Below, in pieces: positions 100 to 60,796 of a stretch of 60,796 bases of DNA. The stretch comes from a virus (lineage: Duplodnaviria > Caudoviricetes): IMG/VR virus record IMGVR_UViG_3300037963_000751, positions 1 through 60,796 of that record. One strand, written 5' to 3'. Made by a program: the position numbers and the translations under genes. Numbering within the stretch: position 1 is the first letter of the stretch; the number at the start of each line of letters is the position of its first letter. A model generated the notes under the pieces. It made no database searches and was not told the DNA's origin. It saw only the letters and a list, made by a program, of their open reading frames with translations.

Positions 100-3000
100 C
101 AGAACAAGGGGTGCTTTTAAGAGAAAGTTTAATTTCTCAAAAGAAAAATGTAGCTAAAGCAAAACAAAAGTTAGAGTTAGATAAAAAAAATATTGCTTCT
201 CGTAAAGAAGATATATATTATTTAGCAGGAAAATATGCCGAGTATCTTGACGACCCTAATAGAGGGAACTTGTCGGGTTCTTTATGGAATGCTTTTGCTC
301 AGTCATGGTCAAGCATGACAGCAGGTACAGTAGACTTGGCTTTATGGGGAGCAGAAAAAGTTTTTGGAAAGGATGAATTAGCTCCCGAACAAACAGACAT
401 ATATCATAGTAGTCAAATAAGAGAAACCCTTGACCCTTATTGGAAGAAAAAGTATGGGTATACATGGACAGACCAACTAAATAAAAATGCAGACAAAGGT
501 AATTATGATTACACTGCGGAACAAAAGGAGGAGGCTGACCAAATAATGCAAGAGTTCTCTCCCTTTAGTTATAGTTTAGTTCAGAAAGCTAATTTAGATA
601 AAGATGGCAGAGCTATCATAAGAGAAGTAAGAAAGGGTAGTAAGTTATGGGAAGGTCCTACCTCTGATAAGTGGACAGAAACATTTAAAGAAGAACAGCC
701 TTGGTATCTTGGTGGAGGTGGATGGCTACATGGTGTAGTAGAAACTTTACCGGCTATGCCTATGATGGCTACAGGATACAAGCAAGGTGGTAGTCTTTTT
801 ATGAAGGGAGCAAGGACTTTATTTTCATATAAGTCCATGCCTATGATTGCAATGAGTTATGATAGGAACATGCAAGAGATGGAAAAAAATCCTGCATTTA
901 AAAACGTATCATTAGATGAGAAGAGAGGTATCTCTACTCTTCTTGCTGTACCTGAAGCAGCACTTGAAAAAATAACTTGGGGCTCGGGACTATTAAATGC
1001 TAAGCCACAGATAGGAGCATGGATAGCAAAAAAAGCATTAGCAAAGAAAGGCTCTACCCTTGGAACAAAAGCTTATCAGAAAGCAGTAGTGGATGTTATT
1101 GAAAATAATTTAGCACGAGGTATTGTTAGAACATTAAGCACAGGAGCAGCAGAATTTGAAACAGGTTTAGCTCAAGAGATTACTTCAATGAGTATTAAAA
1201 ACTTTTATGATGATGCCAAAGGAAAGAAGATGTTTGATAACCCTCAGTTTTTTGGAGGGGATATGTTGGAGTTTACTAAGCAAGCTTTAAAGGGTGGATT
1301 CTATGAAATGTTAGGTGGTATAGTAATGGGTGTTCCTGCAGGAGTATCTACTTCTATGAACAAAAAAGATTTCTCTAAGATGGATGATGCTACGTGGGGA
1401 ATATTTAAACAGATAAAAGATAACCCACAGCTTTTAAAACTAACAGACCAAAAGTTTATACAAGAAATTTCTCTCGGTCAAATGACTCCTCGTCAAGCTT
1501 TAATGATTAAAGAAAATTATAAAGAAGCTACTAATCTTTATAATGAAATACCTGACGCTGAAAAATATACAGGAGACCAACAAAGAGAAATCATGGGATT
1601 GCTTTTAAGAAAGCATGAACTACAAAGAAGAATAGATAAAAAAGACAAAGCTTTATCGTCAAAAGATAAAGCAGAAATAGAAACTATTAATCAGAAGTTA
1701 GTTAACATTTCAGAAAGAGCAGGAGATATTAACTACACACTTGAAAAAATAGATGATGTTTATAAGAATGTTAAGGATGATGCGGAAGTAGAATTAGCAG
1801 CAGAAACATTAGAGGAAATCCCTGACATATACAAAGATAGAGCTGTAGAAAAAGACACAGGGGATATGGGAGAGGTTGAGATAGGGTCAACTATTACAGG
1901 ACTATCTATTGGAAAACAGAAGACTCCTTACACAGGAACATATTATACATATAAATTAACCGGTAAAGAATTAAACAATGCCATTCAAGAGCAAAGCACA
2001 GATTTCGTGGATGCGAATCAATCAGCCCCAAATGTACAAGAGATGGAGGGCGGAACATCCGAGACAGGACCTGAAGTCACTACCCCAAAAGAAGGGGAGC
2101 AAGTTAGCGAAGAGCAACAGGTCCAAAAGGAAAAGTTAAATAACCTTGGGTTTACTGATGAGGTAATAGAGATGATGACACCTGAAGATATTGAGGTGGC
2201 TCAAACATATACCGAACCTTCTCAAGCCACAGAGATGGTGGAGCGTTACCAAAAAGACATGGAAGCGGCTCAATCATTAGCGGCTGAAGATACAACCACA
2301 GAAGATAAACCATTAACTGCAGAAGATGTAGAGACAGTAGGTGTAGCAGGTCAAGTTACTCAACAGAATAGAGGAAACTTAGATGTTAATCCTGTACAGA
2401 AAAAAATTATTAGACAGGCAGAGAAAGCAGTGCAGTCTTTAAAAAAGATTATGCCTAATCTTCGCATCATTACTTATGCTACTGAAGCTGAATATGCAGC
2501 CGCAGTACCCAAATCAAAGATAGGAGAGCGAGGAGAAATATCTAATGATGGTAATACCATACGTATAAATCTTGCTGCGGCTGACGAGACTACAGTAAGT
2601 CATGAAATATTCCATGCTATTATTACAAGTAAGTTTAATATCAACAGCAAGAAGATAGCTACTGCAGTTAACAATGACTTGATAAAGAAGCTACTTAAAG
2701 TTCTTCCAAAGGATAAGTACAGAATGAATGTTGTTGATAAGATAACTAAGGAGAGAAAACAAATCTCTTTACATGAATACTTGGAGGAGTATGTGAAAGA
2801 ATATAAAGATACCGAAACACACAGTGAAGAAAAGCTTGCTCAGATATTTGGTTTTTTAGGTGCAAACTATAGTACCTTAACATACCAAGAGCAAAGTGTA
2901 ATTAAAAAGTTTATAAATAAAATTAAATCTTTGGTTGGTAGACAAGTAAAAGATGCAGGGTTTACAAAAGATGATGCTCGTGTTATTGACTTATTAAACT

Positions 3001-6000
3001 CATTAGCATACAAAGTAAAAGTAGGAGAGGAAGTACAGGAGGGAGACTTACAACTATTTGATGAGGTAGCAGAAGAGGTACAGGGTCAGCCCACTGAAAC
3101 AACTACTGAAGAGGTAGTAGAGGAGACACCTGCCGAAGAGGTGGTTGAGGAAGTAGTAGATGAAGCACCTGCTGAAACAACTATAGAGGAAATATTAGAA
3201 GAAGTTGAAAGGAATGAGAAGGGTGTGTTCACTGTGTTAAATGACCGAGCAACTACAAGGAAAAGAATTATTAAAAGGCAAAGTAGAGATGAAACTTGGA
3301 GTGAGACTGTCTATGATATATTTTTATATCCACAAGGGACAAAGGAGGATATTAGTAAACACCCTGTTGTTAAGGGAAGAAGAAAGAAAACTTATAATGA
3401 TTATAATAAATATAAGAAAGCATTACAGACTCAGTTGAATAAAAAAACAACTACTGAAGAAGCACCTGCTGAGGAGATGGTAACTGATGAAGAGTTTACG
3501 GAGTTTACAAATACAGGTAAGGTTGCTGATGAGGTGATAGAAAAGATAACTGAAAAAATAAAAAGAGGTGAACAGTTAACTCAAAGGGAGGAAGCTATAA
3601 GACAGGACAAGTCAAATGAAGTTGAGGCTAAGTTAAAAGAAACTACTGAGGAAGCACCTGCTGAGGAAGTAGTAGAGGAAATAGATAAAAAGGCAGAAGA
3701 GGTTTTAAATGAAACTAAAAAATTTATAGAGAGTTCTAAGAAGAGAAAATTAGGTGTGATAACCATTATCAAAAATGGTTCTTTCTATGATTATGATTTA
3801 AGAGATGATATTGAAAACCAACTTAAGAAGCTTACAGAGTTAGCGAGGGAGGTAGATGAAAAATATTATGCGGATATAACACGTGCAGAGATAGAGCTTA
3901 AAAAAGTTTATGTAAAGATGCATCAGGATTATTTAAAACGGCTTCAATCTCCTGCCGGAACGATAGATGACGCAATAACACGTGGAATTATAAACCCGAT
4001 AGAAAAAATTACAAGACAGAAACAACTGACCGCAAATAAATCAGACAATGTTTTTTTTGCAAAGCAAGAAATTAGAGATGTAAAAGAAGAAATAGAGAGT
4101 TTAAACAATCTTATAAAAGAAGTAAGTGAAGAAGCACCCACCTCACGTAAGCAGGTAGCTGCTAAGGAGTCAGTTGCTCCTATGAAAGTCAATGAGGAGT
4201 TCAGTAAGATGACACCTGAACAGAAAAGAAAACAACTTGGTGGTAGGTATGGTATCCTTAGTTTAGAATTAAAAAAGGGTTTGTTTTTTGCTGAACAACA
4301 ATACAAGAAACGAGATGAGTATGACAGGCTATCTAAAAGCAATAAGCTTAAAGACATGGACTTGTTTGCGAAGAAGTTTCAAGGCAATCCACCTATGACT
4401 GAGGCACAAATCTTTCTTAACTCAGGAGGATGGTATCGTGGTATAGATGGTGAGTATAGATATGAGATACCTGATGGCAAGTTAGCTAAAGGTAGCTATA
4501 AAGATTTTACACGAGCGTCTAAAGATGCTGCCACAAGAGAAGCAAGACTTGATGAGGTATATATAGCACCCGAAGTTTACAAAACATACCCATTTCTAAA
4601 AGACATCATGGTGCAGTTTACTGCTATGACTATAGAGAAAGATGAAGAGACTATTCCCAATAGAACTACAGTAGGCAGTTGGAATCCTGCTACTAAAATT
4701 ATAAAATTCAATACCAACTATTCAGAGTTTGCTAAAGCTACTCCTGAAGAACAAAGAAATGAAATCTTTTACACTATTGTTCACGAAGTTCAACATGCTA
4801 TTCAAGATTTTGAAGGTTTTGCTATGGGTGGAACAGATGTTGAAACAAAGGGTGGGCTTGGCAAGAGAGTAACAGAAGAATTTGGTAAAGGTAGAGAAAG
4901 ATTAACTAAAGAAAGAATCTTTGCGTCAGAAGCTCAGAAAGGATTAAAGAAAAAATATGAAAGGTTTAGAATAAACAATGAGTTTATTGACTATTTATCT
5001 GCAGCATTAAACAAACTTAAAAAGTTAGGAGAGAAAGATTTATATAACAAATTGCTGAAGAGTAAAAACAAAGGCAAAGACTTGGTTGACATAGTGCTAC
5101 AATACGAAGCCACTGATGCTACCATGAATAGAATATATAGAGAGATAAAGGAAGACGCAAGGTATTATAATAGAGAGTTAGGATATCCTGAGGTTAAGAT
5201 GACTCAAAAAAATCTTAAAGAGTTCTTTGATAACACCGATTATAACCGCCACATATTAGATGAGTATGGAATAAACAACGCACAGACAGGTTCACAAATA
5301 GATGCTATTCAAAAAAGTTTGCTTAAAAGGTTGAGGATGTATGATGCTTATAAGATGTATGAAAGAACATATGGGGAGATAGAAGCAAGGAATGTAGAGG
5401 AGCGAGCAAAAATAAAAAAAGAATTAGCTCGATATAAATCTGAGCTTGATAAACTTAACAGACTTGGAAAGAAAGAAGTTGCAAATGAAATATTTACAAA
5501 AGAACTATATGATTACCTATCAGAAAATGTCATAGATATAGAAGATGTGATAGGTGAAGGAGTTACATACGAAGATTTTAAAATATTTCTAAAGAACAAG
5601 TCGTACAGTAAAGAGATATACGAATATTTAACAATGAAAGACCCTAACTACTCACGAGATGTTACGTTAGGAGAGTTTCAACGTAATGTGGAGGGGCTTA
5701 CTACGGAAGAAAAAATACGAGAGATAGAAGAACAGTTGTATAAACAACTACCTACTGTTACCGAAGACTCAAAAGGATTAATAGAAGATATAGATAAAAG
5801 CGAGCAAGGTCCATACATAATGAAGTCATATCCTAAAGCAAAGCGTAAGCAAGTGGCTTCTAAACAGAAGGTAGAGATGACTACTCAAGAAGAGAATGCT
5901 AAGGCTAAAGAAAAGCTTGAGGGTATGAATCGTAAGCAACTACCTTCACCCAATGCATCTATGGAAGATGTTATTGCATGGGGTAGAAGCAGAGGTGAGA

Positions 6001-9000
6001 GTGATGCAGTTCTTAGAATGTTCTTGAAGTCAAGAGGTTATGGTACAATAAAAGAAATTAGAGAAGCCATGGCTCAGACTGTACAGATGGCAGCTATGCC
6101 ACCTGACTTAGCCAACATTGAGGGTGGTCTTGAGGTAGCTGAAAAAATGTACGAAGATATAATGACTAAGTTCTATGACGCTACCATGGAAACAAGAGAG
6201 GTCGTAGCTGAAAGTAAAAAGAGAATAGCTAAGGCTAAACGAGTAATGCAAAACAATCCTAAAGAGTATGGTAAAGAAAAGGATGGTGTGTTTACTAAAC
6301 CTAACGGGGATAAAGTTACTCTTGATATAACTAAAGCAAAGCGTGGTGTTAAGATAATAACAGCTACGCAAGTGTTAGGTGCTCCACGTACATCTATGGA
6401 AAGTGTATTCACTAAATCAAAAGCACAGAGACGAGCAATCTTGCAACAAATAATAGAGAGCAATGAAGATTATCAAAACCAAGATGAAATAAACAAAGCT
6501 AACATACAAAGACTTTTAGATAGAGCATTGAACACACGAGCCAACCCTTCAGTTGAGCAACGCATGAGAGATGTAAAGAGAATAGCTAAAGCTGCTGAAC
6601 AAAATGAAAAGAAACTTCAAGAGGTAAGAAATAGATTACGAGCATTGATACGTGAGTCTATACCAAGACATTTAGAAGATTCAACCACTACTAAAAACCT
6701 AAACGCCATGATTAAAAGCTTGGCTAAGGTAAACTCTACTAATGTTTTAGTGGAGACTGATAGGATATTGAAACAGATAGAAAGAATAAACAAAAAAGAA
6801 ATAAATTCTTTAAGAAAGAAAGCTTTAAAAATAATAAAGCAGAAGTCAAGTACTGCTAAGCAAGGAAAAACCACAGGGGTAGATGCAGAAACAAATATGT
6901 TTATGCAGGAGATTAAAAAGATATGGTTAAAAATGGACGAGCTTTTAAAAGAAGAAAATAGTGGTGAACTTATAGATGAATACTTAAATAAAATACAAGA
7001 AGAGTTAGAAGATGGGAAGAAGGTAGCAGACATAGACACCATTATAAAAAAGACTATAGATGGAGAGCCGCTTAATTCACAAGAGAAAAGAAAGCTATAT
7101 AAAAACTTTGCTTATGACATGATGTACACCTATCCATCACTTGACTATGAAGGAATGCAACTATTATACGAAGAGATAGCAGACTTAAAAGCTGAAGGAA
7201 TAGCTAAGTTTAAATCCAATAGAGAAGCAAGGGTTAAAAGAAATGCTAAGCTTGAAGCAGAAGCAGTAGAACAATTAAAACTAAAGTATCCTTTCTTGGT
7301 TAATGAGAATGGAGAATTTATGGATAATGAAGAAGTGCAATTAAAAAAAGCTAAGCTTCTTAATCAATGGAAAAAGACTCGTTCATTTAAAGCCATTAAA
7401 GATTGGAGTCGAATAGTTCTTAATAAAAAGAAACAGAAATCTTCCGAATGGCTTAGAGCTTGGTTAGCAACCAATGAAACTCTTAACAATGCTCTTGATA
7501 TGCAGGGGGTAGGTAAAAGTTTCTTTACAAAAAATGTTTATCAAAGACTTCGAGATATGAGAGATGTCTTTTTAAAAGGGCAACAGTCTGAACAGAAAAA
7601 GATGAACGAGATATTGAATGGTATACCTGCTATTGCAGAGAAAGTAAGCAGAAGAAAAAGTCCTTATGCTGTGCTTGTGGATATGCTTGCAGAAGGAGAC
7701 ATGGTAGATATTCAAGGAAACATATTTACTCCTGACGAAGCACTAAGAATCTATGCCTTATCTAAGAATGAAGTGCAGCGTGAAAAATTACAGATAGGAC
7801 AAGATAAAAAAGGTAGAGGAACATTTATAACAGACGCAGGACTACAAGAACTTGAAGCCCAACTACCCACTGCACTCAAACAGTATGCAGATGCAATGGT
7901 GGATTACCTGAGTAATGATTACTATAACAGCGTGAATGATGTGTACATGGATGTGAATAGTGCATCTCTTCCTTATGTAGAAAATTATTTTCCTACTAAA
8001 ACATACAACACTACAGCAGAAAGAAGTAGCATTGAAGAAAAATTACAAAAAGGAGACGTGAATTTTAATGCTGTGTTTAATGCACAAACAGCTCCTGCTT
8101 TAAACGCAAGAACAAATGTGACAGGAAGAATACCTCTTAAAGGATACACATTTACAGGAGAACTAAGCAATCACTTTGAACAAATGGAAAGGTTTAAAGC
8201 CTATGCTGAGGGAGTTAAAGTTATAAGAGATATTGTAAGTATGGATAGTGTTAACAGCGTTCTTGATGTTACAGGATTAAAACAGGTCTATCTTAGAAAC
8301 CTAATGACTACTATTAATCCTAATGCTTTTCAAGCAAGAGGACCTGAAAGTATTTTTGGAAAGGCTCTTAACAATTTCTCTTCATTTGTTTTAGGTTTTA
8401 AACTATGGCAGATTCCTAAGCAAGCTACCTCTTTTATAAATGCATTTGAAGAGTATGATTCAGGCTTAATAAAAAAAGACGTTGATGGTTTAGGATTAAC
8501 TAAGGGAGCGGCAGACATGGTGATGTTCATGATAGACATGGCAGCAACTACAGGTTCTTTAGCATTTGAGTTAATGCCTAAAGCACTAAGAGAAAGGTTA
8601 GGTATTCCTGATGGTCCTATATCTCAAGCGTACAAAATATCCCCCACCTTTAGAAACAGAATACAAGCAGCTATGGAGGGAGACTTGTGGGGACTTGAAT
8701 CAGGTTCTAAAATAAAATACAATAATGAAGCAAAGTCGGAGGGTATTATTCCTCGTAAACTAAAAATGCTACCGCAGAAAGCAAGAAAGTATGGGTCTTA
8801 TCCTACTATGCTTGGAGATGTTCTTGGAGTAATGGGATACATGATTAACTACAGAAGAGATATAAAAAATGGAATGAGTAAAGAGGAAGCATTAAGAAAG
8901 TTTAACAGATATGAAGCAACTCAGCAGACAAGAAGTGAAACAGAGAAGAATAGATTACAATTAGAAAGTAATGACATGTTAAGAGCGTTCACTATGTTTG

Positions 9001-9629
9001 GAAGCACACCATACTTACAGCAAAATAAAATAGCTCAAGCTTCAGCTAACATGATGCAAGCTATAAGTAGAGGTAAGATGCCACGTAAACAAGATATGCG
9101 TTCATTGATTCTTAACCTTGGTTTTGCTAACGTAGCATTCATCTATATGTCCAACATATTTAAGTATGCCTTTGGAGATGATGAAGATAAAGAAGAAGTA
9201 ATGAGACACATGAAAAAAGTAATGCTTGGCTTTAATTCCTTGACAGCTATACCTTATATTGGACCTACCATAAAAGCAATGGATAATTATTATACAACAG
9301 GCAAGGTGTGGTCTCAAGACTTAGGAGTCAATCCTTTTATGCAAGTGTGGAATAGATTCAGAAAAGCTTATGAAGGTAAGCTTGAATTTAAAAATCTTCC
9401 TAAAGATGTTATTAGTTTAATAGGAATAAACACCGACCCATTTGTAGCATTGTATAATAAGACAATAGGAGAGGGTGACTTCTTTGAAAAGGATGAAGAC
9501 TTCTATGACCTACGAGGTATAAGCAAATCATATAGACCTTCAGAGTCTAAGTATGAAGAAGGCTTTGAACCATTTGAAAAAACAGAAAGCTTTAAAACAT
9601 TTAAAGAGCTTGAGGAGGAAAACAAATAG
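78..9629 (+). CDS. Giant virion/ejection polyvalent protein, 3' part (true start at 59521; ~3601 aa in total); two zincin HExxH motifs and an LPD23-like domain
   Basis: HEIFH at 2601-2615 and HEVQH at 4782-4796; WYRGIDGEYRYEIPD and YERTYGEIEARNVEER motifs resemble LPD23/MPTase; last gene of the structural arm. Confidence 0.75.
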   Translation: MTPEQKDSEQGVLLRESLISQKKNVAKAKQKLELDKKNIASRKEDIYYLAGKYAEYLDDPNRGNLSGSLWNAFAQSWSSMTAGTVDLALWGAEKVFGKDELAPEQTDIYHSSQIRETLDPYWKKKYGYTWTDQLNKNADKGNYDYTAEQKEEADQIMQEFSPFSYSLVQKANLDKDGRAIIREVRKGSKLWEGPTSDKWTETFKEEQPWYLGGGGWLHGVVETLPAMPMMATGYKQGGSLFMKGARTLFSYKSMPMIAMSYDRNMQEMEKNPAFKNVSLDEKRGISTLLAVPEAALEKITWGSGLLNAKPQIGAWIAKKALAKKGSTLGTKAYQKAVVDVIENNLARGIVRTLSTGAAEFETGLAQEITSMSIKNFYDDAKGKKMFDNPQFFGGDMLEFTKQALKGGFYEMLGGIVMGVPAGVSTSMNKKDFSKMDDATWGIFKQIKDNPQLLKLTDQKFIQEISLGQMTPRQALMIKENYKEATNLYNEIPDAEKYTGDQQREIMGLLLRKHELQRRIDKKDKALSSKDKAEIETINQKLVNISERAGDINYTLEKIDDVYKNVKDDAEVELAAETLEEIPDIYKDRAVEKDTGDMGEVEIGSTITGLSIGKQKTPYTGTYYTYKLTGKELNNAIQEQSTDFVDANQSAPNVQEMEGGTSETGPEVTTPKEGEQVSEEQQVQKEKLNNLGFTDEVIEMMTPEDIEVAQTYTEPSQATEMVERYQKDMEAAQSLAAEDTTTEDKPLTAEDVETVGVAGQVTQQNRGNLDVNPVQKKIIRQAEKAVQSLKKIMPNLRIITYATEAEYAAAVPKSKIGERGEISNDGNTIRINLAAADETTVSHEIFHAIITSKFNINSKKIATAVNNDLIKKLLKVLPKDKYRMNVVDKITKERKQISLHEYLEEYVKEYKDTETHSEEKLAQIFGFLGANYSTLTYQEQSVIKKFINKIKSLVGRQVKDAGFTKDDARVIDLLNSLAYKVKVGEEVQEGDLQLFDEVAEEVQGQPTETTTEEVVEETPAEEVVEEVVDEAPAETTIEEILEEVERNEKGVFTVLNDRATTRKRIIKRQSRDETWSETVYDIFLYPQGTKEDISKHPVVKGRRKKTYNDYNKYKKALQTQLNKKTTTEEAPAEEMVTDEEFTEFTNTGKVADEVIEKITEKIKRGEQLTQREEAIRQDKSNEVEAKLKETTEEAPAEEVVEEIDKKAEEVLNETKKFIESSKKRKLGVITIIKNGSFYDYDLRDDIENQLKKLTELAREVDEKYYADITRAEIELKKVYVKMHQDYLKRLQSPAGTIDDAITRGIINPIEKITRQKQLTANKSDNVFFAKQEIRDVKEEIESLNNLIKEVSEEAPTSRKQVAAKESVAPMKVNEEFSKMTPEQKRKQLGGRYGILSLELKKGLFFAEQQYKKRDEYDRLSKSNKLKDMDLFAKKFQGNPPMTEAQIFLNSGGWYRGIDGEYRYEIPDGKLAKGSYKDFTRASKDAATREARLDEVYIAPEVYKTYPFLKDIMVQFTAMTIEKDEETIPNRTTVGSWNPATKIIKFNTNYSEFAKATPEEQRNEIFYTIVHEVQHAIQDFEGFAMGGTDVETKGGLGKRVTEEFGKGRERLTKERIFASEAQKGLKKKYERFRINNEFIDYLSAALNKLKKLGEKDLYNKLLKSKNKGKDLVDIVLQYEATDATMNRIYREIKEDARYYNRELGYPEVKMTQKNLKEFFDNTDYNRHILDEYGINNAQTGSQIDAIQKSLLKRLRMYDAYKMYERTYGEIEARNVEERAKIKKELARYKSELDKLNRLGKKEVANEIFTKELYDYLSENVIDIEDVIGEGVTYEDFKIFLKNKSYSKEIYEYLTMKDPNYSRDVTLGEFQRNVEGLTTEEKIREIEEQLYKQLPTVTEDSKGLIEDIDKSEQGPYIMKSYPKAKRKQVASKQKVEMTTQEENAKAKEKLEGMNRKQLPSPNASMEDVIAWGRSRGESDAVLRMFLKSRGYGTIKEIREAMAQTVQMAAMPPDLANIEGGLEVAEKMYEDIMTKFYDATMETREVVAESKKRIAKAKRVMQNNPKEYGKEKDGVFTKPNGDKVTLDITKAKRGVKIITATQVLGAPRTSMESVFTKSKAQRRAILQQIIESNEDYQNQDEINKANIQRLLDRALNTRANPSVEQRMRDVKRIAKAAEQNEKKLQEVRNRLRALIRESIPRHLEDSTTTKNLNAMIKSLAKVNSTNVLVETDRILKQIERINKKEINSLRKKALKIIKQKSSTAKQGKTTGVDAETNMFMQEIKKIWLKMDELLKEENSGELIDEYLNKIQEELEDGKKVADIDTIIKKTIDGEPLNSQEKRKLYKNFAYDMMYTYPSLDYEGMQLLYEEIADLKAEGIAKFKSNREARVKRNAKLEAEAVEQLKLKYPFLVNENGEFMDNEEVQLKKAKLLNQWKKTRSFKAIKDWSRIVLNKKKQKSSEWLRAWLATNETLNNALDMQGVGKSFFTKNVYQRLRDMRDVFLKGQQSEQKKMNEILNGIPAIAEKVSRRKSPYAVLVDMLAEGDMVDIQGNIFTPDEALRIYALSKNEVQREKLQIGQDKKGRGTFITDAGLQELEAQLPTALKQYADAMVDYLSNDYYNSVNDVYMDVNSASLPYVENYFPTKTYNTTAERSSIEEKLQKGDVNFNAVFNAQTAPALNARTNVTGRIPLKGYTFTGELSNHFEQMERFKAYAEGVKVIRDIVSMDSVNSVLDVTGLKQVYLRNLMTTINPNAFQARGPESIFGKALNNFSSFVLGFKLWQIPKQATSFINAFEEYDSGLIKKDVDGLGLTKGAADMVMFMIDMAATTGSLAFELMPKALRERLGIPDGPISQAYKISPTFRNRIQAAMEGDLWGLESGSKIKYNNEAKSEGIIPRKLKMLPQKARKYGSYPTMLGDVLGVMGYMINYRRDIKNGMSKEEALRKFNRYEATQQTRSETEKNRLQLESNDMLRAFTMFGSTPYLQQNKIAQASANMMQAISRGKMPRKQDMRSLILNLGFANVAFIYMSNIFKYAFGDDEDKEEVMRHMKKVMLGFNSLTAIPYIGPTIKAMDNYYTTGKVWSQDLGVNPFMQVWNRFRKAYEGKLEFKNLPKDVISLIGINTDPFVALYNKTIGEGDFFEKDEDFYDLRGISKSYRPSESKYEEGFEPFEKTESFKTFKELEEENK
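1978..2139 (+). CDS. Nested +1-frame small basic protein, 53 aa (MPFKSKAQISWMRINQPQMYKRWRAEHPRQDLKSLPQKKGSKLAKSNRSKRKS)
   Basis: ATG at 1978 after an AT-rich leader, TAA at 2137-2139; resembles small phage proteins beginning MPFKSxAQ (recalled, not searched). Confidence 0.6.
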   Translation: MPFKSKAQISWMRINQPQMYKRWRAEHPRQDLKSLPQKKGSKLAKSNRSKRKS

Positions 9630-23527: not shown

Positions 23528-23534
23528 AAGGTAA

Positions 23535-23796: not shown

Positions 23797-23847
23797 ACAT
23801 TTTAAAAAAGTTATTAACAGGTTTTAATCTTTTATTTTGTTTGACTC

Positions 23848-23867
23848 ATGGCTCGTTGACGAGCTAT
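23848..23867. repeat. Dyad motif copy ATGGCTCG-TTGA-CGAGCTAT (contains a TAG stop)
   Basis: Read directly. Confidence 0.9.
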
Positions 23868-24352: not shown

Positions 24353-24530
24353 TCTCTAATGCATAGACTCGTCCATCTATTCGGTCAACGTACCTATCTA
24401 TTGCGTCTAACTTAGACTCTAAGTGTTGAATCTTTCGTTGGAGCATATACATTTTTGCTGTGATATTACTTACCACTATGCTTACTAAACTACTCGCCAC
24501 TATTGTGGCTACTATCATTGTTGTTGTCAT
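24309..24530 (-). CDS. Small membrane-anchored coiled-coil protein
   Basis: Hydrophobic N-terminus followed by heptads. Confidence 0.65.
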   Translation of the reverse strand: MTTTMIVATIVASSLVSIVVSNITAKMYMLQRKIQHLESKLDAIDRYVDRIDGRVYALENENKVKPKNKTDEK

Positions 24531-24873
24531 GACTTATCTTTTTTTTTAAATAATTATTCCAATGTTCCATGTGAGCCTTAATATCTACTATACTACCATC
24601 ATCCTTTACCATTCTCACAACCTCAACATCACTCCAATTTTCACATTGGGTTATCTCTCTCCAAGTCCTTGCCAACTTGTGTGCTTCACGATTTGTTAAG
24701 TACAAATCATTTACCTCCACGTCCTTCCAAAAGACTGAGTAAAGTTTGAGTGATTCGTAATACTCTTGGTCGTGAGGGTATCTTGCATCCTCTAATTCTT
24801 TTTGCCAATCCAACCACTCTTGGTCAGTCATATCTCGTTCGTCTTTTAAACGTAACACTTCATCATTCTTCAT
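24490..24873 (-). CDS. Hypothetical protein
   Basis: ORF packing. Confidence 0.7.
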   Translation of the reverse strand: MKNDEVLRLKDERDMTDQEWLDWQKELEDARYPHDQEYYESLKLYSVFWKDVEVNDLYLTNREAHKLARTWREITQCENWSDVEVVRMVKDDGSIVDIKAHMEHWNNYLKKKISHDNNNDSSHNSGE

Positions 24874-24876
24874 AAC

Positions 24877-25080
24877 TTATTTGTTTTTATTGATTATATT
24901 AAAGTAAAATCCTAAGCAGGCTGTTGACTGAAAGAGCCACCACACACCTGTCATTATTCTTGTTTTCATTTGCACTTCACGTGCACTAAAGTCTCCCATG
25001 AAACTTAACACTGATGCAATACCCAACATAACTGCAAGGATAAAGCACACATTCTTTAGATAAACATCTTTCTTTTTCAT
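24877..25080 (-). CDS. Small two-TM membrane protein
   Basis: Two hydrophobic segments. Confidence 0.65.
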   Translation of the reverse strand: MKKKDVYLKNVCFILAVMLGIASVLSFMGDFSAREVQMKTRIMTGVWWLFQSTACLGFYFNIINKNK

Positions 25081-25086
25081 CTGTAT

Positions 25087-25314
25087 TTATTTATTTGGTT
25101 TAACATTATGGCTCGCTAACGAGCTGTTTTCTATTTCGTTTAACATCTCAAGGTGATTGTCTAATACATCTAACATTCGTTCGAGATTCTCTACTCTTGT
25201 ATTGGCGTTATTCATTTTAATAAATCCTCGTGCACCCCCAATACATAATATTAGTGCACAAATTGGTATAACAATTAGTCCCATTTTGTTTTCTTTTTTA
25301 AATTTAACTTTCAC
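25087..25314 (-). CDS. Small membrane-anchored protein
   Basis: N-terminal TM segment. Confidence 0.65.
   Translation of the reverse strand: MKVKFKKENKMGLIVIPICALILCIGGARGFIKMNNANTRVENLERMLDVLDNHLEMLNEIENSSLASHNVKPNK
25109..25126. repeat. Dyad motif copy TGGCTCG-CTAA-CGAGCTG (inside a CDS)
   Basis: Read directly. Confidence 0.85.
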
Positions 25315-25681
25315 TTTTTATTTCGTTCCCCTCTATTGTAAACCACTCTCCGTCCCAATCTTCTAATACAATTTCGTTCGTACTCTTTCGCATAATATCC
25401 CACTTAAAATCTTTTTGTCTAATGTGGTATGGTGTTCGTCCAAGTATTCCATTGAGTCGTTCCTTTGTGGTGTTACTCTTACTTAAAAGCGTACTTATGT
25501 TTGACATTTTATAACGTATATACAAACGCCTATTGTTTGCAGTTAAGACTGCTATATTATATCCGAATAAATACATTTCAGCCTCATAGTTAGGCGTAAT
25601 TTTTACGTGTGTATTGCCACGTTTGAACGTCTTATATGCATACATTTTTTGCATAGCGTCCGCAGTTATTTTTCTGCTCAT
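25304..25681 (-). CDS. Hypothetical early protein
   Basis: ORF with an AT-rich leader. Confidence 0.75.
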   Translation of the reverse strand: MSRKITADAMQKMYAYKTFKRGNTHVKITPNYEAEMYLFGYNIAVLTANNRRLYIRYKMSNISTLLSKSNTTKERLNGILGRTPYHIRQKDFKWDIMRKSTNEIVLEDWDGEWFTIEGNEIKSES

Positions 25682-25695
25682 ATAAATAAATATTA

Positions 25696-25746
25696 AATGG
25701 CTCGCTGGCGAGCCATTGATTAAACATTTAGCTCGTTAACGAGCCA
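25696..25746. repeat. Two dyad copies: AATGGCTCG-CTGG-CGAGCCATT (25696-25717) and TAGCTCG-TTAA-CGAGCCA (25729-25746)
   Basis: Read directly. Confidence 0.9.
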
Positions 25747-25874
25747 CTAATAAACATATCAATGAGCCATTTTAAAGCCCTCTAAGAGCGTTTAAATGGT
25801 CAAAGGTATACAGGCACCACAAACAATTAAAAGCCTGCTTAAAAGCAAGGTATTTAAATGAACGGGTAACTTTA

Positions 25875-25912
25875 TACACTACCAAAAGCCCCTGCCAATA
25901 ACGGCAGGGGCT
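25875..25912 (-). terminator. Hairpin plus TTTTGGTAGTGTA element (copy B)
   Basis: AGCCCCTGCC/GGCAGGGGCT 10-bp stem just after 25938..26618. Confidence 0.75.
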
Positions 25913-25937
25913 AAACTTGTTGGTATATTGTTAGGTA

Positions 25938-26618
25938 TTAGCTTAAGTCGACTGCAGTTATGTTAACACCTGCTCCCATTTTAGCTTTTAGCTTTGTATC
26001 CTTAGCCTTTTGTAACGCTGACTCCAAAGCTTTAATAACTTCGTCTATGTCGCAAGGGCTTTTAAAGTTACCTTGTGAATCAATTCGAGCGTGAACTTTG
26101 TTTTCTGACTCGTTACTCGTAAAAGTCATTAAACTTTTTTCTTTGCCCTCGTCTACAGTTACGCCCTCAGAATCTCCGCCATTATTAGCTACTTTTTTAC
26201 AAAACTTATTAAAGCCCTCAATAGATGGATTTTTTTCCGCCTCCGTACTTGCTTTTAAATAAGCCTTTTTTACATTGTTATCTTTTAGGCGGTTGTTTTC
26301 AGCCTGCACTAATTTTTTGCCCCACGAATAAGAACGATTAAAGACCTTTGTATATAAGTCCTCAATAGTCCAAGTCAAGCCCGTTGCTTTTAATACTTCT
26401 TTGCCCTCCGCACTTTTGATAAAGTCCTTAGCTTTAAGCATTAACTTAGCTAACTTAAGCGACGTTTCAAACTCATTTTTGGAAGCCTCAAAACTTGCTT
26501 TACTCAACTCGTTAATTTCAGCGTTTAAGCTGTCAATCTTAGTAGTGTTAATTTGTGTTTTAACTTTAGCGTTATTTAAGAACGCTGTTTCGATAGTGTT
26601 TAATTGTGTGTTATTCAT
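25938..26618 (-). CDS. First early gene; coiled coil plus possible HTH (DUF3102-like) DNA-binding protein
   Basis: LKLAKLMLKAKD...WTIEDLYTKVFNRSYSWGKKLVQ pattern; has its own promoter and terminator. Confidence 0.55.
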   Translation of the reverse strand: MNNTQLNTIETAFLNNAKVKTQINTTKIDSLNAEINELSKASFEASKNEFETSLKLAKLMLKAKDFIKSAEGKEVLKATGLTWTIEDLYTKVFNRSYSWGKKLVQAENNRLKDNNVKKAYLKASTEAEKNPSIEGFNKFCKKVANNGGDSEGVTVDEGKEKSLMTFTSNESENKVHARIDSQGNFKSPCDIDEVIKALESALQKAKDTKLKAKMGAGVNITAVDLS

Positions 26619-26635
26619 AACATTAAATTTTAGTT

Positions 26636-26653
26636 TGGCTCGTTGGCGAGCCG
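26636..26653. repeat. Dyad motif copy TGGCTCG-TTGG-CGAGCCG
   Basis: Read directly; lies between the promoter and the start codon. Confidence 0.9.
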
Positions 26654-26698
26654 TTTATTAAATTAGATTAATTGTATACTGCCAACCGCATACGAGTA

Positions 26699-26730
26699 CA
26701 ATATTAGTCTATAACTATGACAATAGCAAG
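26699..26730 (-). promoter_or_regulatory. Early promoter CTTGCTATTGT-N13-TAATATTG
   Basis: Same spacing and motif as 18662 and 23765. Confidence 0.65.
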
Positions 26731-26900
26731 CGAATTAAGGAAAAAGTTTTCAACAATTTTTTAATCGACCTGTTAATAACTCTGTAACGTGTTGATAGTC
26801 AAGCAGTTACGACAAAAATAATCCTGCAAATAAATTTAAAATATTTTTTTTGGTGCAGTGGTTCCCCTTTTTCTTTATACGTGTAACACGTGAAACGTAG

Positions 26901-27000
26901 CAGGGGCAACGGATACAGGGCGAACGAGGGCAGGGGTACAGGGGTGCAGGGGCGTACGTGTGCGAATAGCTACAATGTAGGCAGGGCAGGGGCTACAGGC
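26901..27000 (+). repeat. G-rich CAGGG(G) repeat cluster in the divergent intergenic region
   Basis: About 8 (C/G)AGGG(G) units in 100 bp of an AT-rich genome. Confidence 0.8.
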
Positions 27001-27140
27001 GAAAAGCAAAACGCCAAAAAATTGGGACGGCACCACAGGAAAACAAAATCGAGGGTAAAAAAATATCGGTTTTGCAGATGGGGGGTCGTTGCGTGAAATA
27101 CCATAGGACCCAATACCTACGGGTATCTAATATTTTTTTG

Positions 27141-27148
27141 TACCTTTG
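27141..27148 (+). promoter_or_regulatory. Bacteroidota -7 promoter box TACCTTTG
   Basis: TAnnTTTG ~25 bp upstream of an ATG. Confidence 0.7.
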
Positions 27149-27170
27149 TATATAATTAAAATAATATACC

Positions 27171-27362
27171 ATGGATGGATTAACAATAAAAGATGGTAGG
27201 TTAATTAATAACCGACCTAATAGTATTACAGGAATAGAGGAGGCTGCTATGCTGAAGAGAGCTGCTAAGAAAGCGAGAAAGGTTGAACAGATTGCGGCAG
27301 GAATGGAGATGGCTGAGTCTATGAAAGAGATGAGAACCATCATGAGTAAGAGAAAATTCTAA
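27171..27362 (+). CDS. Small hypothetical protein
   Basis: Has its own promoter and terminator. Confidence 0.7.
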   Translation: MDGLTIKDGRLINNRPNSITGIEEAAMLKRAAKKARKVEQIAAGMEMAESMKEMRTIMSKRKF

Positions 27363-27386
27363 CAACAAATGTCCTTAATGTTGTTT

Positions 27387-27415
27387 AGGGGATACCTTTA
27401 TGGTGTCCCTTTTTT
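27387..27415 (+). terminator. Intrinsic terminator
   Basis: GGGATACC/GGTGTCCC stem plus T run. Confidence 0.7.
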
Positions 27416-27420
27416 ATTTC

Positions 27421-27610
27421 CCTGTGTCGATAATAATATAGTTAGTGTCGATTCTATGTCGATTTCAAAATAGTTAAGTAGTTGATTTATAGTTAGTTAT
27501 TTTTTTTTATGTCGATATGTCGATTTTAAAGTCTCGTATATAAGAAAGAGTTACGCAGTAGTAATAATATATATATATATATATAGAAAATTTTTTGACA
27601 CATGACATAA
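27421..27610. other. Origin-like module 2: five TGTCGA iterons, (TA)n tract and inverted TGACA sites
   Basis: Same layout as 15625..15790. Confidence 0.55.
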
Positions 27611-27621
27611 GAGATATTTAT

Positions 27622-27629
27622 TATCTTTG
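27622..27629 (+). promoter_or_regulatory. -7 promoter box TATCTTTG for groEL
   Basis: TAnnTTTG consensus. Confidence 0.7.
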
Positions 27630-27651
27630 TGAAAATTAAATTTAATTCAAT

Positions 27652-29265
27652 ATGCAACAACATGGATACAATCCGAAGGAGTTAAACTTCGGAGAGGAAG
27701 GACGAAAGAAGTTAGAAAGCGGAATCACGAAACTCGCTAATGCTGTAAAGAGTACTCTCGGTCCTCGAGGGAACACAGTATTAATTGAATCACCACATCA
27801 CACATCAGGTATCACAGTTACTAAAGATGGTGTCACTGTAGCTAAGTCAATAGACTTGGTAGACCCGGTGGAGAATCTCGCAGTCAAGATAATGAAAGAG
27901 GCTGCGGATAGGACTGCGACTCTTGCAGGAGATGGAACGACTACAGCGATAGTATTAGCTGAAGCTATTATTAATATTGGTAATAAATATATTACTGACA
28001 AACATAATCGTACGGAGGTACTAAGAGAGTTAGTCTCGGCAAAAGATTATGTGGTTGAGATGTTAGCTAAAGATTCTTTGAGTATAACTGACAAGACATT
28101 GAAAGATGTGGCTATAGTATCAGCGAACAATGATACTGAGGTGGGAGAGTTGATAACTGAAACTTATCTTGAGGTAGGCAAGGATGGTCTTGTTACAGTA
28201 GAGAAGGCACAGGGTGCTGAGACTTATTATGAAACCACTAAAGGTTTACAAGTTGATAGAGGTTACATGTCAAACATGTTTGTGAACAATCACAAGAATG
28301 ATGAGTGTATATTAGAAGATGTACATATATTAGTATCTGACTCAGAGATAAGTAGTATCATGCAGATTGATGGTGTATTGAAACCATTGGTAGCTGACCG
28401 ACATAATATAAAGTTATTAATCATTGCACCTTGCTCCAAGGAAATGGAGAATACTCTAACGGCTAATGTAGTAAAGAATGGTTTAAAGATATGTTCTATA
28501 CCACCTCCCAACTTTGGATACAAACAACATGAGTTGATGAGCGACATTGCTGTGTCAGTAGGAGCGACATACTTCAGTGAGAAGACAGGAGATGATTTAA
28601 GTCTTATCGAGTTCAGCGACTTGGGTAAAGCTAAGAAGGTTATAGTGGGTAGGTCAAAGACAGTTATCATTAATAATGATGATGAGGATTTGGTATACAA
28701 GAGAGACCTGAGAGTTGAGGAGCTATGGGTTCAACATAATAATACAAAGAAGAAAGCAGATAGGGATTTTATAAAATCTCGAATTGCCACCCTTACGGGT
28801 GGCGTGGGTGTCATACATGTAGGAGGAGACACTGACATAGAGCAGAAAGAATTATATGATAGAGTTGATGATGCAGTATGTGCTGTTCGAGCTGCACTAA
28901 GTGAAGGGATACTTCCGGGAGGAGGAGTTGCTTTGATGAGATATGCTGATATGTATAATCGCATGGACCACCAAAACAAAAACATAAAGGCAGCTATACA
29001 GATAATGTCTGAAGCGTTAATGGCTCCTGTCATACAGATACTTACTAACGCAGGGAAAAACTTTGAGGATATATATACAGAGATACCAAAGAAGAACCAT
29101 GGCTATGATGTGAAGAATGAAAAGAAAGGGGACTTGATAAAGATGGGAGTAATAGACCCATCCAAAGTAACAAGGTCTGCTCTTATCAATGCTATGTCTG
29201 TAGCGACAACAATACTAAGTACAAATGCAATCGTAACAATGGCGAGAAGTTATGAAACCAATTAA
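27652..29265 (+). CDS. groEL: Chaperonin GroEL (phage-encoded)
   Basis: TLGPRG, VTKDGVTVAK, AGDGTTTA, GGGVAL, GVIDP. Confidence 0.97.
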   Translation: MQQHGYNPKELNFGEEGRKKLESGITKLANAVKSTLGPRGNTVLIESPHHTSGITVTKDGVTVAKSIDLVDPVENLAVKIMKEAADRTATLAGDGTTTAIVLAEAIINIGNKYITDKHNRTEVLRELVSAKDYVVEMLAKDSLSITDKTLKDVAIVSANNDTEVGELITETYLEVGKDGLVTVEKAQGAETYYETTKGLQVDRGYMSNMFVNNHKNDECILEDVHILVSDSEISSIMQIDGVLKPLVADRHNIKLLIIAPCSKEMENTLTANVVKNGLKICSIPPPNFGYKQHELMSDIAVSVGATYFSEKTGDDLSLIEFSDLGKAKKVIVGRSKTVIINNDDEDLVYKRDLRVEELWVQHNNTKKKADRDFIKSRIATLTGGVGVIHVGGDTDIEQKELYDRVDDAVCAVRAALSEGILPGGGVALMRYADMYNRMDHQNKNIKAAIQIMSEALMAPVIQILTNAGKNFEDIYTEIPKKNHGYDVKNEKKGDLIKMGVIDPSKVTRSALINAMSVATTILSTNAIVTMARSYETN

Positions 29266-30615: not shown

Positions 30616-30909
30616 ATGGCAATAAAGAACAAAGAGGAAAGGAAAAAAAAATTAGAAGCTTATAAAAAATATCAAAAGGAAGCTGCATCAAGAACAAAGA
30701 TGGCTAAAGAAAAAAGAGATAAGCTAAAGTCTGCGAAGAGAAAGTCCATGGAGAAAAAAAATAAGGAAAAGAAAGAAAGAATGTTGAAGTTTGTAGAAGC
30801 ATCTAAACAACAGAGACAAGAGAATGAGTCTCAAAGAAAAACAAGAAGTTATAACAGAGATACAGGTTCAAGCATTAAAAAGCTTCAGTGGTTAAAGACC
30901 GGAATATAA
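30616..30909 (+). CDS. Basic coiled-coil protein
   Basis: Composition. Confidence 0.7.
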   Translation: MAIKNKEERKKKLEAYKKYQKEAASRTKMAKEKRDKLKSAKRKSMEKKNKEKKERMLKFVEASKQQRQENESQRKTRSYNRDTGSSIKKLQWLKTGI

Positions 30910-37392: not shown

Positions 37393-37956
37393 ATGCGTTC
37401 ACCTGAAAGGTTTATAGTTCGTCCTTATAATGGGAGGAGGTATGACAATATAAAAAATGTAGAAGGAGTCAATGTAATCATTGGAACTTCAGAAGAAAAC
37501 TATAAAGTTTCTAATAGAGAAGCTGAGGTAATATCTGTACCTTTAAACTATAAAGGAGAGATAGAGCCCGGAGATACTTTGCTTGTTCACCATAATGTCT
37601 TTAAGTTTTATAATGACATTAAAGGTAGAAGGAGAAGTGGTAGAAGTTTTTTTAAAGATGATTTGTTCTTTATTGAGGACGACCAATTTTTTATGTATAA
37701 AAAAAATGGTAAATGGAAGGCTTATGGAAAGAATTGTTTTATAAAACCTTTACCCAAAAAAGATACAGACATATATAAGACAGGGCAATACGAACCTTTA
37801 ATAGGAACTATTAAATATATTAATGAAGATTTAAAAAACTTTGGACTTAAAGAAGGGGATGAAGTAGGGTTTGAACCTGAGAGTGAGTATGAGTTTAGGG
37901 TAGATGGCGAAGTATTGTACAGAATGTTTACTAACAATATAACATTTTTAGTGTAA
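37393..37956 (+). CDS. Tandem GroES-like domain protein
   Basis: IEPGDTLLVHHN and LKEGDEVGF...YEFRVDGEVLYRM halves. Confidence 0.6.
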   Translation: MRSPERFIVRPYNGRRYDNIKNVEGVNVIIGTSEENYKVSNREAEVISVPLNYKGEIEPGDTLLVHHNVFKFYNDIKGRRRSGRSFFKDDLFFIEDDQFFMYKKNGKWKAYGKNCFIKPLPKKDTDIYKTGQYEPLIGTIKYINEDLKNFGLKEGDEVGFEPESEYEFRVDGEVLYRMFTNNITFLV

Positions 37957-54704: not shown

Positions 54705-55082
54705 ATGAGTAATTATAATAAACCAAGTTTAAGAAAAAGAATAGTAGCTCAAGTAACCCGAGGAACTAAAGGGGGTAAAGCCGGACAATGGTCTGCTCGT
54801 AAAGCACAGCTTGCAAAAAAAAAATATGAAGCAGCAGGCGGAGGATATAGAGGAGCTAAAACTAAAAAACAAAAAAGTTTATCTGAGTGGACTAAACAGA
54901 AGTGGACTACAGCAAGTGGTAAGCCTTCAAGTAAGACAGGAGAAGTATATGCTCCTAAGAAAACTATAGATAGATTAAGAGGTACAAGTAAGTTAGCTAA
55001 AGCAAATAGAATAAAAAGAAAAGCAACTCGTGCAGGAAAGCAACACGCTAAGCATGGTTTGCATAAAGGTAAAAAAAGATAG
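54705..55082 (+). CDS. Basic protein (DUF5872-like)
   Basis: GTKGGKAGQWSARKAQL...YEAAGGGY...WTKQKW. Confidence 0.7.
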   Translation: MSNYNKPSLRKRIVAQVTRGTKGGKAGQWSARKAQLAKKKYEAAGGGYRGAKTKKQKSLSEWTKQKWTTASGKPSSKTGEVYAPKKTIDRLRGTSKLAKANRIKRKATRAGKQHAKHGLHKGKKR

Positions 55083-59520: not shown

Positions 59521-60796
59521 ATGAACGAGGAAGCATTACAAAGATTTTATGAGCTGTTTCAAGCAGATGGATATGGAGATTCATTCGAGGACTTCCGACA
59601 ATTAATGTTACAGAATGAGGAAGCTCAAAGAGCTGCTTATGAATTGGCGTTAGGAGATGGGTACGGAGATTACTTTGATGACTTCAAAGTGTTAGTGGGA
59701 GCAAAGGAAAGTGAAGAAGAGTTGCAGCGTACTCGAGATGAGCAAAGAAAGATGGAAGAGCGTGATGCAATGGAAGCATTGTTATTAAAAAAAAAAAGAG
59801 ATGCGGAATCGTCATTGGAAGGTTCTTCTTCGGAATCACCTACGGCTAAAGACTATTATAAATTTATGGGTCCTCAAAGTGAGGAGGATAAATCTGAGAT
59901 AGGCGTACAAAAAGGAGAGGGGGTAATGGATTTACCTACCTCAACAGAAGCTGTTCAAGAAATTTATACAACTGATTCAGGTGTAACTATGCCAAGTAAA
60001 GCTATTGGTATAGGATTTTTGTCTAAAGAATTTCCATTAAGCTTTGAGGGTGCAGATGAGAGAACTCGATTGCTTCTAAGTAAAATGCCAAGAGAAGAGC
60101 TGCATAGATATGAAACTCTTTTAAAGGACAAGAACGAGGCATATCAAAAAATACCTAACGTAAAATATACCGAAGTAACACCTGAATATAAAAACTTTCA
60201 GAAGTTAGATAACTTAACTCGAAAGATAGAAGAAGATTATTTAGAGGCTAAGGTTTATGACTATGGAGAACCTATTAAAAAACAAACACTTACTAAAGAA
60301 GAACAGCAATTTACTTCAGACTTAGCTGCTTATAATAAACAATTAAAGGAAGAAAGTAGAGATTTTTTTGAAGAGTCTGTTGATGAATATATAACTAAAG
60401 ATTTAATAAGTAGTGAAGAAGAGGAAGTCGTTTCCTTTTTAAACAATCAATTTGGTGATGTTGGTTTTGGGTTTGAAGAGACCGGAATAATGGATGCCAT
60501 GATAGTTACTGCTCCCAATGGTGCGACTAAAGAAATAGATTTAGACACCATCATGAGTGATGACGAAGAAAAGGAGAAGCTAAAAACTTTTATGAAGAAC
60601 AATCGTCCGTCTGAAAAGATAGACAAGGTTAAGCTTCAAAGGTATGAAGACCAAGAAGATTTAGATGAAGGACTGTTTGAAATAGAAAACCTAAACAAAA
60701 ACTATATAAAAGCATCTAATCAATATGATGCTGATGAAAAAAAATATTATAAAGAATTAGCTGCATACACTCGAATGACACCTGAGCAAAAGGATT
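59521..60796 (+). CDS. 5' part of the giant protein (MNEEALQRFYELFQADGYGD...), continuing into 78..9629
   Basis: Open frame to the window end; 60775 corresponds to the ATG at 78, in frame (418 codons). Confidence 0.85.
   Translation, partial: MNEEALQRFYELFQADGYGDSFEDFRQLMLQNEEAQRAAYELALGDGYGDYFDDFKVLVGAKESEEELQRTRDEQRKMEERDAMEALLLKKKRDAESSLEGSSSESPTAKDYYKFMGPQSEEDKSEIGVQKGEGVMDLPTSTEAVQEIYTTDSGVTMPSKAIGIGFLSKEFPLSFEGADERTRLLLSKMPREELHRYETLLKDKNEAYQKIPNVKYTEVTPEYKNFQKLDNLTRKIEEDYLEAKVYDYGEPIKKQTLTKEEQQFTSDLAAYNKQLKEESRDFFEESVDEYITKDLISSEEEEVVSFLNNQFGDVGFGFEETGIMDAMIVTAPNGATKEIDLDTIMSDDEEKEKLKTFMKNNRPSEKIDKVKLQRYEDQEDLDEGLFEIENLNKNYIKASNQYDADEKKYYKELAAYTRMTPEQKD
60699..60796. repeat. Terminal direct repeat (assembly overlap) of 2..99
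   Basis: Sequence identity. Confidence 0.95.

Follow-up and report, generated by a model that had tools for sequence, protein, structure and literature searches.

Why does the gene for a giant virion protein carry an uninterrupted run of 11 A, 89 codons after its start? This question was raised by the virus record IMGVR_UViG_3300037963_000751 (Duplodnaviria; Caudoviricetes), of which positions 1 to 60,796, i.e., the whole stretch of DNA that was analysed, are called the window in the following. A sequence-only reading of the window had proposed that -1 ribosomal frameshifting or transcriptional slippage on this run yields a short protein sharing its N-terminus with the giant one. Based on comparison with related loci, the run very probably is the slip site of a real -1 recoding event with a predicted short product. 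The features of the locus in the window are as follows:

59521..60796, plus strand: giant virion-protein gene, 5' part; frame continuous after removal of the 99-nt overlap of the record's ends
59521..59700, plus strand: N-terminal domain with two repeats of about 30 amino acids (aa; residues 1-30 and 31-60), based on alignment
59766..59849, plus strand: -1-frame open reading frame (ORF) overlapping the giant gene, no start codon of its own; TGA at 59763-59765 before it, TAA at 59847-59849 as its end
59787..59797, plus strand: A11, predicted slip site, TTA AAA AAA AAA AGA, 89 codons into the gene
59798..59846, plus strand: putative dual-coding stretch, -1 frame R-C-G-I-V-I-G-R-F-F-F-G-I-T-Y-G, frame 0 an acidic/Ser linker; based on differences among relatives

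The A-run and its two reading frames

The 11 A are found at 59787-59797 in the codons TTA AAA AAA AAA AGA, exactly as had been read from the sequence. The slippery heptamer A_AAA_AAA occurs in phase twice (59787-59793 and 59790-59796), so that one of the two slippery motifs originally named is present, while the other, AAAAAAG, exists only as an out-of-phase string, the in-phase reading being A_AAA_AGA. Contigs from three public runs, all of those covering the site (3/3), also revealed A11 without a gap. Though it is the sole A/T run of at least 11 in the window, 32.5% of 200 first-order Markov simulations contained such a run; by composition alone, it is not significant, and its significance comes only from the comparative data.

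The record is classed as 'linear', yet its last 99 bases (window 60698-60796) repeat its first 99 (window 1-99) with a single mismatch, at window nt 1, which makes it a circular contig of 60,697 bp. The giant gene begins with the ATG at 59521 and runs over the circular junction to window 100..9629, resulting in a total of 3601 aa; the length previously assigned to the protein is thus correct once the overlap is removed. Both N-terminal repeats that had been described are present, and alignment of this domain with its relatives revealed the invariant residues G17, Y18, N32, G47, and Y48. Beyond the run, the -1 frame reads K-R-C-G-I-V-I-G-R-F-F-F-G-I-T-Y-G followed by a stop, i.e., the aromatic/Gly tail up to the TAA at 59847-59849 that had been pointed out, and frame 0 at this place is indeed the S/E-rich stretch RDAESSLEGSSSESPT. 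A shift to -1 within the run, with the stop 17 codons on, would give a product of 109 aa, and the N-terminal domain would be common to the long (3601-aa) and the predicted short products.

Conservation of the run in relatives

With residues 1-425 of the giant protein as query, a full HMMER search revealed 374 relatives, many of them proteins of 80-130 aa that consist of the N-terminal domain, KKK, and then the aromatic/Gly tail or another short reading. For a search of IMG/VR blind to both run and frame, a degenerate DNA pattern for the first 18 codons of the N-terminal domain was used, which resulted in 97 loci, all of them (97/97) with a giant ORF in frame with the domain. With the window added, 98 sequences were compared; the longest A run downstream of the domain was A10 in 69 of them and A11 in two, namely the window and its closest relative L086. 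Dereplication by clustering at 90% nucleotide identity led to 60 lineages, 43 with A10 and two with A11. While the sequence-only reading had regarded a run broken by AAG codons in relatives as evidence against its proposal, A10 or A11 was found in 45 of the 60 lineages.

The first A of the run falls on codon position 3, 2, or 1 in 35, 8, and 2 lineages, respectively, and apart from the two A11 every run is A10. The frame-0 peptide varies with the phase (V/L-KKK-D/E/G, E/Q-KK-N, or KKK-S), and the run length is constant. In the rest of the same genes (242,901 nt), A runs did not exceed A9, of which there were two; AAA accounts for 62% of the Lys codons there, yet only one of 72 KKK was encoded by AAA throughout. 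From the constant length and the avoidance of A-runs in the rest of the genes it follows that the run is kept at the nucleotide level at this place and purged elsewhere.

Conservation of the tail in the -1 frame

A peptide resembling GRxFFG and followed by a stop, which was to be expected in the -1 frame of homologs if the proposal held, turned out to be conserved. In relatives, the tail has a consensus of roughly R-Y-G-I-x-[FI]-G-[RG]-W-F-F-G. A loose anchor ([WFY][FWIY][FIVL]G within residues 58-130) was detected in the -1 frame of 34 of the 60 lineages, compared with one in frame 0 and none in the +1 frame. Columns not forced by the anchor were aromatic in 30, Gly in 29, and Ile/Phe in 31 of the 34 anchored lineages. 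The Gly codon displayed entropies of 0.83, 0.51, and 1.93 bits at its -1-frame positions 1, 2, and 3, respectively, i.e., the variability expected for wobble positions of the -1 frame, and these coincide with second positions of frame 0.

Loci L097 and L165, whose N-terminal domains are unrelated, encode the same tail with 9 of 15 codons differing; each of the nine changes is silent for the -1 peptide and alters the frame-0 residue. A pairwise codon comparison was performed with 116 distinct 45-nt segments (150 loci among the matches listed), in which 39% of the differing codons were synonymous in the -1 frame versus 14% in frame 0, and 46% of the differences fell on -1-frame third positions. 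Because the substitutions keep the -1 residues and change those of frame 0, the frame-0 motif D/E-G-S-S/L is a shadow of the -1 motif and not the reverse. An ungapped comparison of the frames after the run (identity 0.124 in frame 0, 0.163 in -1, and 0.100 in +1) was uninformative owing to the variable spacing and was replaced by these anchored and pairwise analyses. The codon-level signature indicates that the -1 frame downstream of the run is under purifying selection, both run and tail are under selection, and the tail is the best-conserved piece of the gene's 5' region, above the N-terminal domain.

The -1 stop follows 4 or 5 codons after the final Gly in 97 of the 150 loci among the matches listed, and the run is preceded by a median of 8 open codons in the -1 frame. 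Internal initiation of the -1 ORF was ruled out, with an ATG before the motif in only 1 of 131 distinct -1 ORFs and any ATG, GTG, or TTG in 4 of 131. Since the -1 ORF has no start of its own, the tail is reachable only via a frame shift at or near the run. The predicted short isoform with the N-terminal domain of the giant protein is thus well supported by the comparative data, whereas its high abundance and a role of the site in setting its ratio to the giant protein remain suppositions of the sequence-only reading.

In some lineages the tail motif is doubled, as in the -1 reading of phage Panino (L104, 22650-22800), which has two W-F-[FI]-G units; frame 0 of L009 contains two E-D-G-S-L-E-S units.

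Lineages without the run

Fifteen of the 60 lineages lack the run, and seven of these 15 keep the -1 tail. In six of the seven, an in-phase shifty heptamer was identified inside the -1 ORF:

G_GGA_AAG: L010 and L044 (cluster of 4 loci)
T_TTA_AAA: L009
G_GGT_TTA: L041 and L094
A7: L018

The seventh, L069, has a tail and only A_AAG, while L056 harbors G_GGA_AAG with a different, basic tail. No excess of structure was found after the heptamers of run-less lineages (z-scores from -1.17 to +0.87).

Further loci and cultured phages

A second frame-blind DNA search, for A10 followed after 15-45 nt by codons for W-F-F-G, matched at least 120 stretches. Among the matches listed, there were 69 new loci, and in 66 of them the motif is read in frame -1 relative to a long ORF with an in-frame upstream part; of the other three, one is cut by the end of the locus and two look like chance matches. 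These loci revealed many N-terminal domain families without evident mutual similarity, most of them with two tandem repeats, and nearly identical tails.

Cultured as well as deposited phages share this layout. In Elemovirus, A10 is located at gene nt 169 and is the sole A run of 8 or more in the 11-kb gene, MW202828 carries A11 with the same N-terminal domain family, and in Cellulophaga phage phi38:1, gp101 displays A10 at nt 98 and an aromatic -1 tail. Cellulophaga phage phi46:3 (L103, 21104-25743) and Maribacter phage Panino (L104, about 22500-28186) keep all parts with a run of A9, so that N-terminal domain, large ORF, and tail are in three different frames; this A9 may be a sequencing undercall or real. 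In phi46:3, the annotation divides the gene into gp119 (102 aa, 'structural protein') and gp120, whereas for Panino an internal GTG was taken as the start of the large ORF, and a minus-strand ORF, probably spurious, covers the N-terminal domain.

Two further observations concern deposited sequences. Among the Elemovirus records listed (e.g., MT497074.1; L212 and L213), 33 of 60 start at the A10 or exactly 99 nt before its end, which looks like a break of the assembly graph caused by heterogeneous run lengths among the reads. In addition, several short metagenome ORFs (P0070, P0099, P0117, and P0149 as well as P0090, P0104, and P0115) have the +1 or -1 reading fused in frame to the N-terminal domain; they represent contigs with one A fewer or more, with 1-3 members per cluster.

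Structure and possible role of the short form

The natural in-frame short form P0104 was modelled from an 11-row alignment and revealed four helices with a predicted local distance difference test (pLDDT) value of about 80. A Foldseek search of this model against the PDB gave no hit at E <= 0.001 (best E = 3.3), and its best Atlas score was 0.86, below the lead level of 0.9. Relatives of the short form with nearly the same length fall into 19 small clusters with uninformative names.

In the tail, a cluster of Lys and Arg precedes a hydrophobic stretch that is aromatic and spaced by Gly, which is reminiscent of the amphipathic membrane-targeting ends of MinD or FtsA. We could imagine that the short form serves the giant protein as adaptor or assembly factor, sharing its N-terminal domain and being anchored by the tail to a membrane or to a virion partner; this role is a guess and the weakest part of our account.

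Route of the shift and alternative explanations

We suggest that the giant gene of this phage, which would be Pervagoviridae-like with marine Flavobacteriia as hosts, undergoes conserved recoding with the A11 as slip site. Normal decoding would lead to the 3601-aa protein, while a fraction of expression would enter the -1 frame inside the run and end 17 codons on, giving a 109-aa protein composed of the helical two-repeat N-terminal domain, a Lys/Arg junction, and the tail x-G-I-x-I-G-R-F-F-F-G, which ends a few residues later. On A10 or A11, slippage of the RNA polymerase, presumably that of the host, would add one A to the transcript, and we see roughly an even chance that this is the main route at these runs. 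It would fit with a length fixed at 10 in every codon phase, with long A-runs being purged elsewhere, and with the lack of a conserved downstream structure. The C(UUCG)G hairpin at 59821-59840, previously suggested as a stimulator, starts about 23 nt past the run and did not hold up: the 121-nt region of the window folds no better than shuffled sequences (z = +0.63; equally good or better folding in 146 of 200 shuffles), and it has no counterpart in relatives, in which the 60 nt after the run showed no excess structure (mean z -0.45, n = 45, 7% below -2). According to the part of PMC5009743 dealing with such sites, polymerase slippage is efficient from 9 A/T, and the RNA:DNA hybrid comprises 9-10 bp. 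The A10 favours the polymerase route because its length matches this hybrid whatever the phase.

The same product could also be made from faithful transcripts by ribosomal -1 tandem slippage of tRNA-Lys on A_AAA_AAA only, which we regard as possible, at clearly lower probability than polymerase slippage. An in-phase A_AAA_AAA is always present in the run, twice in the window, and run-less lineages with a tail carry classical heptamers in phase inside the -1 ORF. For this purpose, however, an in-phase A7 or A8 would suffice, yet 43 of the 45 run-bearing lineages have exactly A10, in three phases, and neither the run nor the heptamers are followed by a stimulatory structure. In Bacteroidota, AAG is read by a tRNA-Lys of its own, so that slippage with an AAG codon in the A-site would be weakened, and G_GGT_TTA sits in the tail's own Gly-Phe codons and may be a by-product. 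G_GGA_AAG, on the other hand, is highly shift-prone in E. coli and used in the g-t genes of archaeal viruses, as described in the relevant part of PMC5009743. Because the heptamers of run-less lineages, except A7, offer no homopolymer long enough for known polymerase slippage, they count against the favoured route and suggest that at least some members of the family shift on the ribosome. Both routes may operate, as in the dnaX family.

Two explanations would do without recoding as proposed here, and we consider both of them very improbable. In the case of a DNA contingency tract, replication slippage would generate A10, A11, and A12 subpopulations, and the short protein would come from genomes one A longer. 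This would account for the short in-frame -1 and +1 forms from related contigs in protein databases, for the A9 with which phi46:3 and Panino were deposited, and for the breaks at the run or 99 nt before its end in the Elemovirus records listed (33/60). The giant ORF is nevertheless in frame in every one of the 97 IMG/VR loci as well as in 66 of 69 loci of the second search among the matches listed, the contigs of three runs show A11 for this phage, and the short in-frame forms belong to clusters of 1-3 sequences, mostly from contigs below 2 kb, as stutter in sequencing or assembly would give. Moreover, a genome unable to make the giant virion protein could hardly propagate alone. If, instead, the run were just a Lys-rich linker and the likeness in the -1 frame a by-product of the frame-0 motif D/E-G-S-S/L, the mechanical coupling of both motifs would be explained (GAT GGT TCT TTx read one base earlier gives W-F-F), and the run is not improbable by composition. 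Against this, the substitutions are synonymous in the -1 frame and alter the frame-0 residue, and the coupled frame-0 columns swap unlike classes (E/V/A/D/G and S/L/F). Run length is also kept over three phases with differing frame-0 peptides (VKKKD, EKKN, and KKKS), KKK encoded only by AAA is avoided elsewhere in the genes, and the -1 stop lies 4-5 codons after the motif in 97 of the 150 loci among the matches listed.

Some findings tell against the recoding that we favour. The window itself is off the consensus, with Cys for Tyr and Phe for Trp in its tail and with A11 in place of the usual A10, and seven of the 15 run-less lineages have neither the tail nor an evident site, i.e., the system is not universal. 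An exact A10 could reflect the need for three Lys codons in both frames. The tail of P0104 was modelled with a pLDDT below 50, so that its function is a guess, and among public RNA runs none was listed with this stretch, product and level being predicted.

A more far-reaching version of recoding at this site, which seems rather unlikely to us, would be that the A10 is a tuned stutter site of the host polymerase, similar to RNA editing, from which the giant protein, the protein with the -1 tail, and a +1 N-terminal domain protein are made. Phages with A9 would then obtain their large protein only from transcripts with an additional A, like Ebola GP, and the tail would be a portable membrane or portal anchor exchanged between phages. 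If this were true, the frame encoded by the genomes of phi46:3 and Panino would be the short form, and their large virion protein would need transcripts gaining an A.

Comparison with known systems

In dnaX, E. coli uses a -1 frameshift at A_AAA_AAG, whereas in T. thermophilus slippage at a 9-base run yields the short form (section on dnaX in PMC5009743). As with tau and gamma, a long and a short protein with a common N-terminus would be produced here, the short one via another frame with a nearby stop. The use of either polymerase slippage or ribosomal frameshifting by homologous dnaX genes, again as given in that section of PMC5009743, parallels the A10 and G_GGA_AAG lineages of this study. 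In contrast to dnaX, the gene is that of a giant phage virion protein, with the predicted shift some 60-90 codons into it, the search for a stimulatory element after the run or the heptamers revealed none, and the new frame would add a strongly conserved tail of 17-45 aa, which is better conserved than the N-terminal domain.

A -1 frameshift of the G/GT type is used for the tail assembly chaperones of tailed phages and archaeal viruses, and its site in phage lambda is G_GGA_AAG. Like the locus studied here, G/GT represents a conserved recoding site in a phage structural module with products sharing their N-terminal part, and G_GGA_AAG is among the sites used, in the g-t genes of archaeal viruses (PMC5009743, in the part on these genes). 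While the shift in G/GT extends the protein and leads to a minor longer product, here it would truncate 3601 aa to 109 aa. Furthermore, the phages with this gene are podovirus-like and have no tape measure protein, and searches of the giant protein's first 425 aa with Pfam and PHROGs detected no sequence similarity.

Citrobacter rodentium tssM and slippage-dependent insertion sequence (IS) transposases are similar in that an A/T run of hybrid length gives length variants (described in parts of PMC4256274 and PMC5009743). In tssM, slippage rescues an interrupted gene, whereas here the genome frame is that of the full-length protein, with phi46:3 and Panino as possible exceptions, and a conserved peptide is encoded in the alternative frame.

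Stuttering of viral RNA-dependent polymerases at runs of A6-A7 underlies potyvirus P3N-PIPO, Ebola GP, and paramyxovirus P/V. These systems also combine a common N-terminus with different C-termini generated at a short A-run, which sets their ratio in those viruses. The phage studied here, in contrast, has double-stranded DNA, and with no RNA polymerase gene recognised in the window, the host polymerase is presumed to act.

The site was not described in titles and abstracts on phage transcriptional slippage, Elemovirus, Cellulophaga phage frameshifting, Pervagoviridae, and Cellulophaga virion proteomics; peptides of the N-terminal domain or tail might be present in supplementary proteome tables. 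The terms 'frameshift' and 'slippage' were not found in PMC8776804, PMC12014285, and PMC13288928. The case thus seems to be undescribed, while the kind of system, programmed frameshifting or transcriptional slippage, is already known.

Genome context and further A-runs

Upstream (5') of the giant gene, we identified genes for a terminase, a portal protein, several PHROG 'virion structural protein' families, tail-fibre-like proteins, and GroES; the PHROG families for portal, terminase, GroES, and 'virion structural protein' are all present in the window. GroEL (Cpn60_TCP1, E = 9e-59) and the GroES-like co-chaperonin are encoded at window 27652..29265 and 37393..37956, respectively, with GroEL further upstream. 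The part of PMC8776804 on core genes lists cpn10 among those of Pervagoviridae, together with portal and structural proteins. No tRNA gene was found in the window. For a structural protein of 1537 aa, the nearest cultured phages infect Cellulophaga, Flavobacterium (Elemovirus), Tenacibaculum, and Maribacter, with identities of 29-45%.

Searches with Pfam and PHROGs gave no family for the N-terminal 425 aa of the giant protein, and of the large polyvalent protein domains (LPD) only LPD23 came up, with 21.4 bits at a gathering cut-off of 27. With a 1999-aa query, one segment of the protein (11% of the query) aligned at 30.6% identity with an Elemovirus 'structural protein' of 3694 aa. The 5' part of the gene, used as DNA and as protein query against the phage collection, gave no match, and none of the 11 pattern matches obtained when IMG/VR was scanned with a single protein could be confirmed.

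A second long run in the window, A10 at 54815-54824 (GCA AAA AAA AAA TAT), lies in ORF 54705..55082 for a very basic product of 125 aa, and the -1 frame stops at once after it. PHROG matches of this protein are split at the A10, one family covering residues 3-49 and another residues 51-117. The A10 is a candidate second slippage site; the related loci compared at that stage contained no homologue of the protein. The third-longest A run of the window, A9 at 30643-30651, is located in ORF 30616..30909 for a 97-aa protein of unknown function.

Implications

The site would belong to a large and deeply conserved recoding family with at least 150 loci and at least three groups of cultured flavobacterial phages, in a setting, the phages of Bacteroidota, in which recoding has been little studied. 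Probable mis-annotations include gp119/gp120 of phi46:3, CDS0069 of Panino, and the short frameshifted ORFs in metagenome protein sets. With Cellulophaga baltica and phi38:1 as well as Flavobacterium sp. BAL314 and Elemovirus, cultured systems exist in which the route of the shift and the role of the short form could be studied. Alternative slip sites (A10/A11, G_GGA_AAG, and T_TTA_AAA) that would lead to one and the same trans-frame peptide offer a natural comparison, and every genome of this kind is predicted to encode a so far unannotated protein of about 100 aa.

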